Part shown: positions 55,406 through 64,000 of the stretch, piece by piece | Position numbering within the stretch: the stretch's first letter is position 1 | How the letters are laid out: the number at the start of each line of letters is the position of its first letter | Source of the DNA: Alphaproteobacteria bacterium | GTDB taxonomy: Bacteria; Pseudomonadota; Alphaproteobacteria; Thalassobaculales; Thalassobaculaceae | Direction: 5' to 3' | Length of the DNA stretch: 64,000 bases | Assembly (NCBI GenBank): GCA_024742275.1 | Contig: JANSYS010000013.1 | Location: 27,704 to 91,703, forward strand | Made by a program: the position numbers and the translations under genes | Notes under the pieces: generated by a model | What the model saw: the letters and a program-made list of their open reading frames with translations, nothing else | Databases searched by the model: none | What the model was told of the DNA's origin: nothing

Positions 55406-55476
55406 TGCGTCGCATCGAGGAGCAGCTTACCACCCTCAGTCCGAATTCTATCGAATGGTTCATAGACAGTCAGTGT

Positions 55477-55557
55477 CCGCTATGGGTCGAACGGCTCGTA
55501 GTGCTCCAACGGCCGCTATGGGTCGTTCCAGGGCGGTTCAACGGTCGCTATTGGTCG
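55477..55557. repeat. Three degenerate direct repeats (CCGCTATGGGTCG, CCGCTATGGGTCG, TCGCTATTGGTCG) at 36- and 32-nt spacing
   Basis: Copies at 55477..55489, 55513..55525 and 55545..55557. Extended copies 2 and 3 (55505..55525 vs 55537..55557) share 18 of 21 nt. Confidence 0.6.
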
Positions 55558-55787
55558 AGCGGCGCAGGGAACTTGACCGGCGTTCTAGAGCATCGACCGT
55601 ACCGGGGTTTCCGTACCAAATTCCCCCAAAGTAGCGGTAGGCAGTTGTTTTGATTTCAATGGCTTAAGCGAGGCGTCAGAATCGTGTTTTTAGCGTTTCC
55701 AGCGGCTTAGCGGCAATTCCTGTAGGGACTGATTGGAACGTGGGGGTCAGCCATTGTGGGGTCGGGTGCGATCGGGCGCATAAGGGG

Positions 55788-60800: not shown

Positions 60801-62306
60801 TTGCCGAAGGACTCGCCGACGATCTATGCGGAGCTGGAGCTGCTGGCGTCGATCCGACCGGACGCGGGCTTCGCGGGAGTCAGCGGGCAGTTGACGCCGC
60901 AGTCCTACATCCTGTCGAAGGACTGCCATCTGACCGGTGGGTTCGCCTACTACTTCTGGTTCGCCGGCGAGCACGCCGGCGACTTCGTCGCCACCATGGG
61001 CGGCTACAACCCGAATTTCGACGTGCCCTCCTACTACCCGACGGTGCCCCGGCTGGCGATCAACTGGCAGGTCACCGACGATCTGGTGATCAAGGGCGAC
61101 TCCTATTTCGCGGTCACCTCGGCGGCGGCGATGGCCGGCGGCGGGCTGTCGGCCGTCTGGCACGGCGGCCCGGTCCGGGCCTGGTTCGACGTCCAGGCCG
61201 ACTTCCTGATGGTCTACAAGCCGTTCCACTACTACATCGACGCCAGCGTCGACATCGGGGCGTCCTTCCGGATCAGCCTGATCTTCACGCACATCACCCT
61301 GACGATCCATGTCGGCGCCAGCCTAGAGATCTGGGGGCCGGACTTCACCGGCAGGGCAACCGTCGACCTGGACATCATCTCGTTCACGATCGACTTCGGC
61401 GGATCCGGCAAGAGCACCGACACCACGATCTCGTGGAACGACTTCGCGACCGGGATGCTGCAGCCCGGCGGCAACGGCGGCGGTGACGTGGTCCTGGCGA
61501 GCACCGGAGCCCCGGACGACGCCAGCGGCATCCACGTCAACGTGTCGAAGGGTCTGGTCCGAAGCCTGAGCGACGATCCGAGCCAGCTCGACTTCGTCGT
61601 CGCCTCTTCCGGTACCGAGATCTCGGTTACCACCGCGATTCCCATCAAGGAGAGCCAGGCGACGTTCTCGGGGTTCGCCAAGCTGGCCCCGGATTCCGCG
61701 CAGCCCGCCTCCGGGGGGAGCACGATCGTTCCGTCCGAGGATTTCGGGGTCGGGCCGGTCGGACTGGACAGCCAGCAGTTCACGCCGACCTTCGACCTGT
61801 CGGTCACGCTGACCAGCGACCCGCACGCCCAGGCGACTCCGAACCTCCAGGCCGTGCGCGTCCTCTCGAACGCGCCCAACTCGCTCTGGAAGAAGATCGA
61901 CTTCGACTCCAACGGGGTGCCGCAGGTAGGCGACCCGCTCTCCGACAGCTCGATCCAGAACGTCGTGGTCGGTTACCGGCTCGTGCCGATCGTCAACGCG
62001 CCGGATCACACGCTGCCGATCCAGCTGCAGGTCCTGCAGTACACGATCGCGCCGCAGATCCAGCCGTTCGCGTGGAGCACCGCCGAGGTTCCCACCACCG
62101 ACAGCTTCTCCGGCGACACCGTCGAGAACTCGATCGACAGCACCACCGCGGTCGCCAACCGGGCGGCGCTGCTGCCGGCCCTCCAGGCGTTCCTGCCCGG
62201 GCTGTCGACGACGGTCAACGTGGAACCGCTTTCGAGCAAGACCACCGCCGGGCTGCTGGCCGAGCCGGTCATGCGCCTGCTCGGCGAGGAGAAGGCCGCG
62301 GCATGA
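57876..62306 (+). CDS. Uncharacterised 1476-aa protein; C-terminal half resembles DUF6603-type proteins (from memory)
   Basis: ATG at 57876 with an AAGGAA SD; high G+C with clear codon bias. Motif strings WFNVQKTFGPVSIDKIGLQY, FFVTGLAAGFGYNRDLQIP and MGGYNPNFDVPSYYPTVPRLAINW. No signal peptide seen. Confidence 0.8.
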   Translation: MDLNTLATTLRQQAGQNDAIAFDSSFLSSDQIVAVQSGFGLGQQSYLTIKDISASDVPAPDGGTLKLSAGSVSALSQDDMPVAVVFSVDGGGTLQFTITLTLADSWAFTDSFPSLTPFPFDKITEANSRAVYASAAVAGFTPYTSQPHEQVDLAAGLNIVTQPQLSLTGGVAGLLQNVLSQQTTFTFAGSIDLSGGNAYPVCDFVCKLVAGSFDIVPHKLSVGGLGLAISVSEPVLGIQTFTLRLEASTIDLTFGAEIPNDGAILGFFAEPKAGHQFGVQQILSLPFGSGFQDDIPSELADGFNAALLQSFSILLTSSGSIGALSFAIGSDPGFTWTLIDDVLVLDSTHLELGMLQPGGADASTTVSFAATASIFPSVFTGTFDFSIETDNPGGSSWEIQSISGKYVGEAKLGDIVQGIVGSTAKVPAALNDISFQDFGARAAKKGSGYSYSVYGTVQVAMPIMDTSLLATLIVQATYDSGDYTMKLAGTFLVGEENFDLELDLGKSGQQSVGDSDIVMTASWTALTPDAQLQFSEIAEAFGFSGDDIPPIPSDLELSLKSASLSYDFTKSELLIALASATYGDAVFAAVKNPDTHQWQYFFGMAVDKPIPISNLPLVGDVLPANETVEIKDIHVVIASAAFSDTLATQVNALITPLGSGYPTVPDVDGQGMAAGFGFSMNVAVGSDTIPLSFETGQSGGGGDSALRARTGSLAAAPGAVAAVAAAPASDGVAWFNVQKTFGPVSIDKIGLQYKNQELFVLTNMSLSGDGLTIGLLGFGIGSPLTSFDPTFQLQGLDVTYAGGGITISGGLRGQIEPEVSFVGELMVEAESFGIAGLAGYGSVDGAPSMFLYAVLNATLGGPACFFVTGLAAGFGYNRDLQIPDVGGIADFPLVEWAQATDNPPGMDMTASIGPQVAAVLQRLSADGIVAPMAGQSWFAAGVRFTSFDLVNSFALGIVKFGNDVEIDLLGTSTVALPKDSPTIYAELELLASIRPDAGFAGVSGQLTPQSYILSKDCHLTGGFAYYFWFAGEHAGDFVATMGGYNPNFDVPSYYPTVPRLAINWQVTDDLVIKGDSYFAVTSAAAMAGGGLSAVWHGGPVRAWFDVQADFLMVYKPFHYYIDASVDIGASFRISLIFTHITLTIHVGASLEIWGPDFTGRATVDLDIISFTIDFGGSGKSTDTTISWNDFATGMLQPGGNGGGDVVLASTGAPDDASGIHVNVSKGLVRSLSDDPSQLDFVVASSGTEISVTTAIPIKESQATFSGFAKLAPDSAQPASGGSTIVPSEDFGVGPVGLDSQQFTPTFDLSVTLTSDPHAQATPNLQAVRVLSNAPNSLWKKIDFDSNGVPQVGDPLSDSSIQNVVVGYRLVPIVNAPDHTLPIQLQVLQYTIAPQIQPFAWSTAEVPTTDSFSGDTVENSIDSTTAVANRAALLPALQAFLPGLSTTVNVEPLSSKTTAGLLAEPVMRLLGEEKAAA

Positions 62307-62380
62307 CGGACAACCATCCCGACCCGGCCCGGCTGGGTTCGGGCGGCGCCGGCCGCAGGGACCGGTAGGGGAGTGCAGGA

Positions 62381-64000
62381 ATGGACAACGGACATCCGAA
62401 TGCGATGGCGTCGACGGGCGGCGACAAGCCCGATCGCAAGGTCATCTTCATCCAGAACGACGAGCCGCCGCTGAAGGCCGGCGACTACACCCTGTCGGTC
62501 ACGCAGACGACCAACACCGCCAAGCCGAACAGCTTCTCGACCTCCCGGCAGTTCGCCGTCAGCGGCGAGCGGTTCAGCTTCCAGTCCGGCGAGATCGACT
62601 CGGTGTTCCCTCCCAACCTGGCGAACGGCGAGTTCGACGGCTCCCTGCCATGCGTGGTGTTCAACCGCCAGACCCTGCCCTGGGAACGGTACCTGATCGA
62701 AGGCAACCAGGACGCACCCTGGCTCGCGGTCCTGCTGTTCGACGCCGACAGCAAGCCCGATCCGAAAGCGATGACCGCCAAGGATCTGGTGAAGCAGGGC
62801 GAGACCATCACCGTCTACGGCAACCCGTCTCTGACCGGGACCGGCGCCCTGCCGTCCGGGACCTTCTCCTATCCCGGCATCAACCCGCTCGACTACGGCG
62901 AGACCCCGGACACGCCCTGCACGGTGATCGACGTCGACCTCGCGCTCTTCAACCGGATCGCGCCGAGCGTGAACGACCTCGAGTACCTGGTGCACATCCG
63001 CGAGGTCGACACCATCGACACCGCGAAGAACACCAGCGAGGAGACCAGCTACGCCGTCGTGATGGGCAACCGCATCGGGCAGAACAATGCAGTGTCCTAC
63101 GCCTGCCTGGTGTCGCTGGAGAACATGGGCACGTACCTGCCGGACGACGACGGAACGCCGGCGACGACCTTCCCCGACGGGACCCGGACGGTCCGGCTGA
63201 TCTGCTACCGGTCGTGGCAGTTCACCGCCAACACGCTGGACCAGAACTTCCTCAAGCTGGTGGAGGATCTCAACGCGCCCGGACCGGGCGGCCAGAAGCT
63301 GACGACCCTCCAGTTCCCGACCGGCGAGGCCCCGCCGACCGGCGCGCAGGTGACGCAGGCGCTGGCCGCCCAGGCCTCGGGCAGCCTCACCGGCGCCCAG
63401 GCCAAGGTTCTCGCGCAGAACGCCTTCGGACAGGGCTATGTGCCGATGAACGAGGAGTTCCGGCAGGGCGCGACTGGGGTGTCCTGGTATCGCGGCCCCT
63501 GCCTGCCCCTCCAGCCGTCGGCGACGACCTACACGCAGCCGAAATCCAGCGACGCGGCCAACCGCTACAACCCGGAGACCGGCCTGTTCGACGTCTCCTA
63601 CGGGGCGGCCTGGCAGCTGGGGCAGCTGCTGGCGCTGCGCAACAAGGCCTACGCCAACGCGCTGTACAACTGGAAGAAGGCGGTCACCGCCGCCGAAGCC
63701 AGCGCCGCCGAGCAGGCGGTCCTGGAACAGGCGCTGTCGGGTGACGGCGACACCGCCGGCGCGCCGCCGTTCGCCGAACTGCTGGCGCGGCGGCGGCGCG
63801 CCCTGGCCAGCCCACCACCGCTGCCGGACGTGGTCGCCACCTGGCTCGGCCAGCTGAAGCTGCTGACCGGCGTCCCGTTCCAGTACTTGGTGCCGCACGA
63901 CAGCATGCTGCCGCTGGAGTCGCTGCGGTTCTTCACCCTCGACATGACATGGGTCGACTACCTGGTCGACGGCGCCTTCAGCATCGGCCGGGCCAGCTCC
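62381..64000 (+). CDS. Uncharacterised large protein, N-terminal 540 codons; it continues beyond the window and is absent from the ORF track
   Basis: I translated it by hand from the ATG at 62381 (MDNGHPNAMASTGGDKPDRKVIFIQNDEPPLKAGDYTLSV...TLPWERYLIEG...). There is no stop through 64000. It lies 74 nt after the previous gene on the same strand. Confidence 0.75.
   Translation, partial: MDNGHPNAMASTGGDKPDRKVIFIQNDEPPLKAGDYTLSVTQTTNTAKPNSFSTSRQFAVSGERFSFQSGEIDSVFPPNLANGEFDGSLPCVVFNRQTLPWERYLIEGNQDAPWLAVLLFDADSKPDPKAMTAKDLVKQGETITVYGNPSLTGTGALPSGTFSYPGINPLDYGETPDTPCTVIDVDLALFNRIAPSVNDLEYLVHIREVDTIDTAKNTSEETSYAVVMGNRIGQNNAVSYACLVSLENMGTYLPDDDGTPATTFPDGTRTVRLICYRSWQFTANTLDQNFLKLVEDLNAPGPGGQKLTTLQFPTGEAPPTGAQVTQALAAQASGSLTGAQAKVLAQNAFGQGYVPMNEEFRQGATGVSWYRGPCLPLQPSATTYTQPKSSDAANRYNPETGLFDVSYGAAWQLGQLLALRNKAYANALYNWKKAVTAAEASAAEQAVLEQALSGDGDTAGAPPFAELLARRRRALASPPPLPDVVATWLGQLKLLTGVPFQYLVPHDSMLPLESLRFFTLDMTWVDYLVDGAFSIGRASS

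Follow-up and report, generated by a model that had tools for sequence, protein, structure and literature searches.

The last part of a 64,000-nucleotide stretch of alphaproteobacterial DNA (hereafter the window; family Thalassobaculaceae, contig JANSYS010000013.1) carries the opening 2.7 genes of a self-contained cassette of five genes which, as we show here, was acquired by horizontal transfer. In order, the cassette encodes a glycosyltransferase-like protein of 433 amino acids (aa), a 1476-aa protein with a DUF6603 domain, two further large proteins referred to as p743 and p1333, and a 1500-aa propeller protein. The cassette is present in hundreds of species from about ten phyla, with three core proteins (DUF6603, p743 and p1333) that are near-constant. 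As far as the databases and literature searched go, the system is of a new kind, and we propose, with a probability of about 0.4, that it encodes a tail-less, fibre-targeted effector-delivery (toxin) complex. A preliminary description, made from the letters of the window alone, had suggested that several genes form a system of unknown function reaching past the window, and this is borne out by the downstream sequence. Three features lay beyond its sight: the AT-rich first gene is the swappable slot of the system, the fifth gene is fibre-like, and the cassette is bracketed by sequences that resemble transposon ends.

Results

The cassette beyond the window was read from two contigs, L001 and L086, which are identical to the window and were reached via exact-protein look-ups. 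The third gene ends 612 nucleotides (nt) past the window, and what follows is not a well-annotated cluster but two large unannotated genes (1333 and 1500 aa) and then a Tn3 transposase; no family in Pfam, NCBIfam, PADLOC, PHROGs or the PDB gives the cluster a name. The gap is 15 nt before the 1333-codon gene and another 74 nt before the 1500-codon gene; the gaps of 94 and 74 nt reported earlier inside the window are correct, and across the cassette the intergenic gaps range from 15 to 94 nt. Of the three co-oriented genes first described, the two large ones had been placed exactly, but gene 1 begins with the ATG at 56480 and not with the TTG at 56405. The ATG has an AGGAGG 11 nt upstream and gives an N-terminus that aligns with 13 homologues, and the TTG start was rejected on the ribosome-binding site (RBS), the gene call and the homologue alignment. 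The reported contrast in base composition holds, with a G+C content of 47.0%, 67.0% and 68.3% in genes 1, 2 and 3. The G+C content at third codon positions (GC3) is 54% in gene 1 and 93–94% in the other four cassette genes, and all five frames are intact. The description was also right that these three genes show no signal peptide (N-termini inspected) and no known enzyme motif, the sole enzyme hint being a sub-threshold match of gene 1 to the TAGT family. All five cassette proteins lack Walker A motifs and long hydrophobic runs, and inspection showed no N-terminus resembling a signal peptide. An independently assembled metagenome contig is 100% identical across all 16,125 shared bases, including the junction with the upstream fhuB gene, hence the arrangement in the window is not an assembly artefact. 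The exact locus sequence occurs in phycosphere, algal and seawater metagenome runs.

In a survey of 185,579 species, each represented by a single genome, a DUF6603 relative is encoded in at least 580 places. Neighbourhoods with 10-kb flanks were compared for the best 80 of these places, with counts obtained by tblastn and by all-against-all clustering of open reading frames (ORFs). The homologues are not scattered without a conserved neighbourhood, which the preliminary description had named as a possible outcome: a p743 gene lies directly downstream of the DUF6603 gene in 71 of 82 loci from other organisms, as it does in the window (74 nt), and a p1333 homologue lies within the cassette in at least 68 of the 82. 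The conserved module of the fifth protein is encoded in 46 loci and an alternative fibre-like gene of about 500 aa in 18. Directly upstream of DUF6603 there is a gene of 300–990 aa, here called X, in 68 of the 70 loci that are not cut off. Two gene orders occur, X-DUF6603-p743-p1333-fibre in 39 loci (including the window) and p1333-fibre-X-DUF6603-p743 in 29; given that these are cyclic permutations, they suggest two sub-modules, X-DUF6603-p743 and p1333-fibre. Read past the end of the window, the locus has every part of the cassette, namely p743, p1333, a gene with the fibre module and, 94 nt upstream of DUF6603, the glycosyltransferase-like gene.

Within Pseudomonadota, these best 80 loci include Burkholderia, Collimonas, Pseudomonas, Methylobacter and Marinomonas, and they also span Actinomycetota, Bacteroidota, Cyanobacteriota, Chloroflexota, Acidobacteriota, Verrucomicrobiota and KSB1; relatives in Bacillota and Gemmatimonadota came from other searches. 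In Burkholderia the cassette sits in a different genomic context, which indicates that the cassette moves as a whole. The flanks (137 genes) contain no enriched family (at most 3 of 137) and show no enrichment of defence, secretion or lysis genes. No DUF6603 relative was found in 2.9 million viral contigs (IMG/VR), and an origin as a phage or prophage structural module was rejected on this ground. Searching a plasmid collection by tblastn gave distant matches only, annotated as 'DUF6603' or 'hypothetical'.

Herpetosiphon aurantiacus DSM 785 (CP000875.1, 2.418–2.469 Mb) carries two complete cassettes, L046 and L081, about 28 kb apart; their cores are 40–46% identical, their X proteins 27% identical over 11% of the length and their fibre proteins 43% identical over 34%. 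On p-YT9A, a plasmid of the Gram-positive Paenibacillus polymyxa (L087; NZ_CP133769.1, 13.6–37.7 kb), a cassette core starts with a 908-aa DUF6603 protein, which is followed by proteins of 714, 1050 and 504 aa, all annotated as hypothetical. About 7 kb from this core are genes annotated as a phage baseplate assembly protein V (VgrG-like), a DUF4280 protein, a GH-E nuclease fragment and an ankyrin-repeat protein, a toxin-type neighbourhood that is a single case.

Among related cassettes, divergence or replacement is greatest for the X and fibre genes, and two Chitinophaga species carry different X families. The 68 X genes fall into at least 19 clusters that are unrelated by BLAST. The family found in the window, TAGT-like putative glycosyltransferases, occupies the slot in 14 loci, and Pfam matches identify a metallo-beta-lactamase (MBL) fold (Lactamase_B) in 12, an endonuclease/exonuclease/phosphatase (EEP; Exo_endo_phos) in 7, a LanM kinase-like domain (DUF4135) in 5, a subtilase (Peptidase_S8) in 2, and a class-3 lipase (Lipase_3) and a glutamine deamidase (Gln_deamidase_2) in 1 locus each. 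In most loci X is poorer in G+C than the core, on average by 4.2 percentage points; the deficit exceeds 5 points in 22 of 70 loci, and an excess of more than 5 points occurs in 2 of 70. The X gene of the window has the most extreme offset, −20.7 points. In five loci (L060, L064, L065 and L074 from Acidobacteriota and L013 from Chitinophaga) the X enzyme belongs to family F7, which is distantly metallo-beta-lactamase-like, and is always preceded by a gene of about 140 aa (family F12); a small upstream gene is seen with F7 only. The F12 protein could be an inhibitor, an immunity protein or a chaperone.

With a G+C content of 47% and a GC3 of 54%, gene 1 was apparently brought in by a swap from a donor with low G+C. 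Its product and the Burkholderia homologue share 37% identity, and the other four cassette proteins are 51–64% identical to theirs. The earlier tentative assignment of gene 1 as a glycosyltransferase is weakly supported. Its match to PF20691 (TAGT) reaches 22.7–22.9 bits (E about 1e-4), below the Pfam cut-off of 27.5, and the model reaches E≤0.01 in 4 of the 14 members of the gene 1 family. A weaker match is to phrog_842, a beta-glucosyl-HMC-alpha-glucosyltransferase (HMC, hydroxymethylcytosine), at E=0.05. The alignment of the 14 family members has the invariant motifs GFGA.R.AA, W..DDN, QQ..LWN and ED, with D205-D206-N207 invariant, and the family profile finds no relative in the PDB. The best profile matches of gene 1, to TAGT and phage HMC glucosyltransferases, are weak; the gene stays below threshold and has no TET/JBP partner and no phage context: neither a TET/JBP dioxygenase nor a phage DNA-modification module is present among the called genes of L001, L086 and L002. 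The TAGT literature searched consists of phage DNA-glucosylation papers only. A DNA base as the target of gene 1 is not implied, given that the same slot elsewhere holds lipases, proteases, MBL and EEP enzymes.

Gene 2 matches PF20248 (DUF6603) with 453.3 bits (cut-off 27; E=1.3e-135) over aa 740–1206. The protein has a variable N-terminal half, a DUF6603 core at aa ~730–1180 and then a conserved C-terminal region. We modelled aa 480–1476 only with AlphaFold2 (AF2) from 25 sequences, which gave a predicted local distance difference test score (pLDDT) of 71.6, with most of the core at 80–95, and a predicted template modelling score (pTM) of 0.51. The core is predicted to be a long amphipathic antiparallel beta-meander of about 25 strands of 10–19 residues (mean 11 aa). 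Hydrophobicity alternates along its strands by 2.8 Kyte-Doolittle units versus 1.9 in the strands of p743, and its composition is 13% glycine and 12.6% aromatic residues. Foldseek with the DUF6603 region returned 17 matches at E≤1e-3, with template modelling (TM) scores of 0.1–0.18, and these are large beta-barrels and beta-belts only (FimD usher, LptD, porins, SprA, VDAC and the ApoB100 beta-belt). The likeness is one of generic large amphipathic beta-sheet architecture and not of family membership. The literature searched (papers and preprints) contains no mention of DUF6603, PF20248 or IPR046538, and combinations of descriptive terms likewise found none.

Some relatives of gene 2 are much larger. 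In the giant proteins P0012–P0025 (3100–3600 aa) the DUF6603 domain lies at about residues 2000–2900, and in P0010 (2106 aa) at about residues 900–1400. That the giant proteins are fusions of the three cores was considered and rejected, as they are not fused to p743 or p1333. As an exception among them, P0015 ends in a segment of about 110 aa that resembles the N-terminus of p743.

For the p743 family, clustering at 50% identity leaves 5333 representatives at E≤1e-3, and 3330 when the threshold is E≤1e-30. An AF2 model from 120 homologues has a pLDDT of 91.4 and a pTM of 0.85, yet a global, whole-protein Foldseek search found nothing at E≤1e-3 in the PDB or BFVD (best E 0.26 and 0.25, query TM ≤0.11). 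p743 is thus a confidently predicted fold without a match among PDB or viral structures. None of 51 family members has a Pfam match, and neither p743 nor p1333, as single proteins or as family profiles, has a match in Pfam, NCBIfam, PADLOC, PHROGs or the PDB sequences. In 16 loci, p1333 ends in a stretch of ~145 aa with homology to the domain that opens the fibre module. As possible distant paralogues, DUF6603, p743 and p1333 show no detectable relationship (hhalign probabilities 0.2%). In one otherwise normal cassette, DUF6603 and p743 are fused in a single ORF of 2237 codons (L088 1599–8312, a Logan contig from SRR24319175; protein P0179, with DUF6603 at aa 61–1460 and p743 at aa 1501–2222), which is seen on this one contig only and is possibly a sequencing or assembly error.

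The fifth gene has a conserved module of about 325 aa and is variable in all else. In the window's cluster it encodes a Ser/Thr-rich protein with lactonase/YVTN-type beta-propellers, which match the archaeal S-layer YVTN propeller 1L0Q (E=4.5e-15), the only PDB sequence match from the cassette. Across 54 members, the variable parts carry Laminin_G_3 (21 members), lactonase-type propeller (7), Peptidase_S74 (the intramolecular chaperone of endosialidase-type fibres; 6), phage tail Collar (6), Laminin_G_2 (6), Pentaxin (2) and T4 Gp10_C (1) domains. Such domains are the vocabulary of phage receptor-binding fibres and cell-surface proteins. A Pedobacter locus (L058) has two tandem fibre-gene paralogues.

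Discussion

In the effector-delivery complex that we propose, the DUF6603 protein, p743 and p1333 would assemble into one large particle. The fifth protein would dock onto it via the conserved module, of which p1333 ends in a copy of the first domain, and would aim the particle at a surface receptor of another cell. The amphipathic beta-meander of DUF6603 would engage or breach the target membrane, and the X enzyme would be the payload, a glycosyltransferase in the window's copy. We prefer effector delivery because a hypervariable binder and a hypervariable enzyme sit on a constant scaffold, the binder domains are of extracellular type, and there are no NTPase or sensor-type domains. We further suggest, tentatively, that the cassettes represent a novel class of protein-delivery machine, a tail-less particle made of three families that lack characterised relatives, with exchangeable binder and enzyme. 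It would have no evolutionary link to Tc toxins, to contractile injection systems or to secretion systems, and many of its hosts are predatory or associated with algae or fungi.

Several observations weigh against such a complex. Neither a secretion signal nor a secretion system or lysis genes were seen within the cassettes or close to them, which leaves export unexplained, and BLAST across the X families reveals no shared loading or adaptor segment. No conserved immunity gene lies beside X, which is awkward if the target is bacterial. The glycosyltransferase assignment of gene 1 is sub-threshold, the confidence of the DUF6603 model is modest and its structural likeness generic, and the RNA runs of the same study, which are tiny and the sole RNA runs found, contain none of the locus. 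Swappable enzymes also occur in anti-phage systems.

Among delivery systems, a close comparison is with the Tc (ABC) toxins of Photorhabdus, Xenorhabdus and Yersinia, which have large signal-less subunits, a variable payload, receptor-binding domains and a large beta-sheet element, reside on mobile islands and are exported non-classically. The cassette is similar in its very large subunits without signal peptides, variable enzyme, binding domains, large beta-sheet element and mobile island. However, the five cassette proteins have no RHS/YD, VRP1, TcdA_TcdB_pore or SpvB Pfam match, and the 50 listed Foldseek matches of the DUF6603 region include barrels but no RHS structure. The payload is a separate gene instead of a C-terminal extension of the shell, and the phage-fibre-like binder has a gene of its own. 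Extracellular contractile injection systems (eCIS) and tailocins likewise combine a hypervariable fibre gene (Collar, S74, LamG) with variable effectors beside a conserved core, and the taxonomic range of eCIS is similar to that of the cassette, including Bacteroidota, cyanobacteria, actinomycetes, Chloroflexota and Burkholderia. In contrast to these systems, no sheath, tube, baseplate, spike, tape-measure or AAA+ ATPase gene is found in the recurrent families of the 83 loci or among the 137 flank genes, the cassette proteins have no usable PHROGs match, and there is no relative on viral contigs. Scans of the cassette proteins against NCBIfam, PADLOC and PHROGs gave nothing usable. The cassette fails every tested defining feature of Tc toxins and contractile injection systems and has no PADLOC match, hence we file it under no known kind.

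An unlikely alternative is anti-phage or abortive-infection defence, in which the core, together with the fibre-like protein, would detect infection, for instance through binding to phage structural proteins or glycans, and the X effector would kill or arrest the infected cell. Effector swapping is known in the defence systems Lamassu, CBASS and retrons, and the cassette shares with them a conserved core, an effector slot filled by unrelated hydrolases, mobility and a patchy distribution among lineages. It is self-contained, its exchangeable enzymes include nuclease-like, lipase and protease families, transposon scars mark its flanks, a TIR-domain gene lies near one locus, and missing secretion signals fit an intracellular role. 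Yet none of the five proteins matches PADLOC-DB v2 (5027 models, E≤0.1), the three core proteins lack an NTPase, helicase or nuclease motif, and the flanks are not enriched in defence genes. In contrast to Lamassu, CBASS and retrons, the cassette has no NTPase, SMC, cyclase or reverse transcriptase core, and it carries a fibre-type binder. The LamG, S74 chaperone, tail collar and S-layer-type propeller domains of the fifth gene are typical of extracellular binding proteins, and glycosyltransferase and LanM-kinase-like effectors are unusual in defence systems.

A third reading is that the cassette builds a surface or extracellular structure for the producing cell, for instance an adhesive fibre, a sheath or an envelope appendage, with the fibre on a base of DUF6603, p743 and p1333 and with X as a maturation enzyme. 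We consider this distinctly unlikely, although the S-layer-type YVTN propeller, LamG and pentaxin domains are in keeping with it and no immunity genes are found. A glycosyltransferase or a LanM-type kinase/dehydratase in the X slot could act on Ser/Thr-rich proteins, and the fibre protein is Ser/Thr-rich. The beta-meander resembles envelope proteins of the usher, LptD and SprA type, in that the DUF6603 core, like FimD, LptD, SprA, porins and the ApoB100 beta-belt, is predicted to be an amphipathic antiparallel meander rich in glycine and aromatic residues. Unlike an outer-membrane barrel, DUF6603 has no signal peptide, matches with a TM of at most 0.18, lies inside a 1476-aa soluble-looking protein and is also found in the monoderm Paenibacillus and Streptomyces. 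A signal peptide is missing from all five proteins, and diderm and monoderm bacteria alike carry the cassette. The X chemistries (lipase, glutamine deamidase, EEP, MBL and S8 protease) are too varied for one maturation step, and X has been replaced repeatedly through horizontal transfer.

That there is no system at all, but only unrelated cargo or decaying ORFs that are chance neighbours on a transposon-rich island, is very improbable: mobile-element debris does fill the region and the composition of gene 1 is far from the rest, but five frames are intact with a GC3 of 93–94% in four, the gene set recurs with fixed adjacency in at least 80 distant genomes, the p743 family is large (5333 cluster representatives) with a model pLDDT of 91, and the conserved neighbourhood excludes chance assembly.

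The core families are large and widespread; two of them lack a Pfam model, and the third is listed merely as a DUF. If effector delivery is the function, the cassettes would represent a new mechanism of interbacterial or bacteria-eukaryote antagonism and a large natural collection of enzymes and receptor-binding domains that can be exchanged; if they are instead a defence system or a surface structure, it would still be a new one. The modular grammar of constant core, swappable enzyme and swappable binder makes the question of function directly testable on a single operon of ~17 kb.

Boundaries of the island

The coordinates of the cassette genes and of the features upstream of them are collected in Table 1. 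As described before, the coding pattern changes abruptly at 55406: a 665-aa FecCD/FhuB-like permease gene ends at 55405, and the G+C content falls from 0.67–0.74 to 0.55–0.58. The earlier estimate of about 1 kb without a credible gene agrees with our reading, in which 55406–56479 (1.07 kb) holds no intact gene.

Table 1. Features of the window from the island boundary to its end (positions in the window).
Feature	Position	Strand	Basis
Three degenerate direct repeats, core CCGCTATGGGTCG at 55477, 55513 and 55545	55470..55575		sequence read and pattern search
Solo Tn3-family end-like sequence, starts GGGGTTTCCGTACC, 38-bp inverted-repeat-like start	55604..55723	+	match to downstream copy
Relic of an IS110-family transposase (N-terminal DEDD domain only, 74 aa)	55788..56012	-	tblastn
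Promoter-like site TTGACT-16 nt-TATGGT in an AT-rich patch, ~290 nt upstream of gene 1	56160..56187 (L086 3780-3807)	+	consensus scan, weak
Cassette gene 1 (X slot), 433-aa TAGT-like putative GT-A glycosyltransferase	56480..57781	+	gene call, RBS, alignment
Cassette gene 2, 1476-aa DUF6603 protein	57876..62306	+	PF20248
Cassette gene 3, p743, first 540 of 743 codons	62381..64000 (ends 612 nt beyond)	+	L001, L086

The five-gene island is bracketed by transposon debris, with direct Tn3-end-like copies on both sides and an IS110 relic beside the upstream copy. The upstream copy, which we provisionally take to be a Tn3-type terminal repeat from the usual form of such repeats (~38 bp, GGGG start), is ~90% identical over ~120 nt to L086 20876–20995, and the similarity stops after ~120 nt. 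The downstream copy lies in direct orientation 50 nt past the stop of the 1500-aa gene, ~9.2 kb beyond the end of the window, and overlaps the 3' end of a tnpA (DUF4158 and DDE_Tnp_Tn3) that reads towards it. The two copies may record the arrival of the cassette or a rearrangement. The IS110 fragment noted earlier is indeed a relic: full-length IS110 DEDD transposases have about 340 aa, and the remaining piece is 84% identical (tblastn) to IS110 transposases on plasmids of the marine alphaproteobacteria Roseibium and Leisingera. A 50-aa gene called within it has a precomputed Pfam match to PF01548 that is marked weak.

Just past the stop of the fifth gene (L086 20838–20864) there is a GC-rich hairpin, ACGCCCCCCC-GCGA-GGGGGGGGCGT, with no T-run, and no comparable hairpin occurs in the four internal intergenic gaps as printed. 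From the sequence, a hairpin after the fifth gene only is consistent with one transcription unit. The promoter consensus scan gave 4 sites versus 1.8 expected, which is not significant, and promoter and terminator counts lie within the range of shuffled sequences.

Upstream of the island, the window from ~47876 to 55405 (L001 1–7530) is an ordinary ferric-siderophore uptake cluster with a FecR-like sensor, a TonB-dependent receptor, an esterase, an ABC ATPase, a periplasmic binding protein and the fused FecCD (FhuB-like) permease, and the island begins at its 3' end. The degenerate repeats reported directly after fhuB are present in three copies. Their core CCGCTATGGGTCG is matched 11 times in the window when up to 2 mismatches are allowed, versus 2.8 expected, and none of 100 shuffles reaches 11. 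The repeat may be a repetitive extragenic palindromic (REP)-like element of the host; a second group, the 13-mer and near variants, lies at 43.7–46.5 kb (43726–46482).

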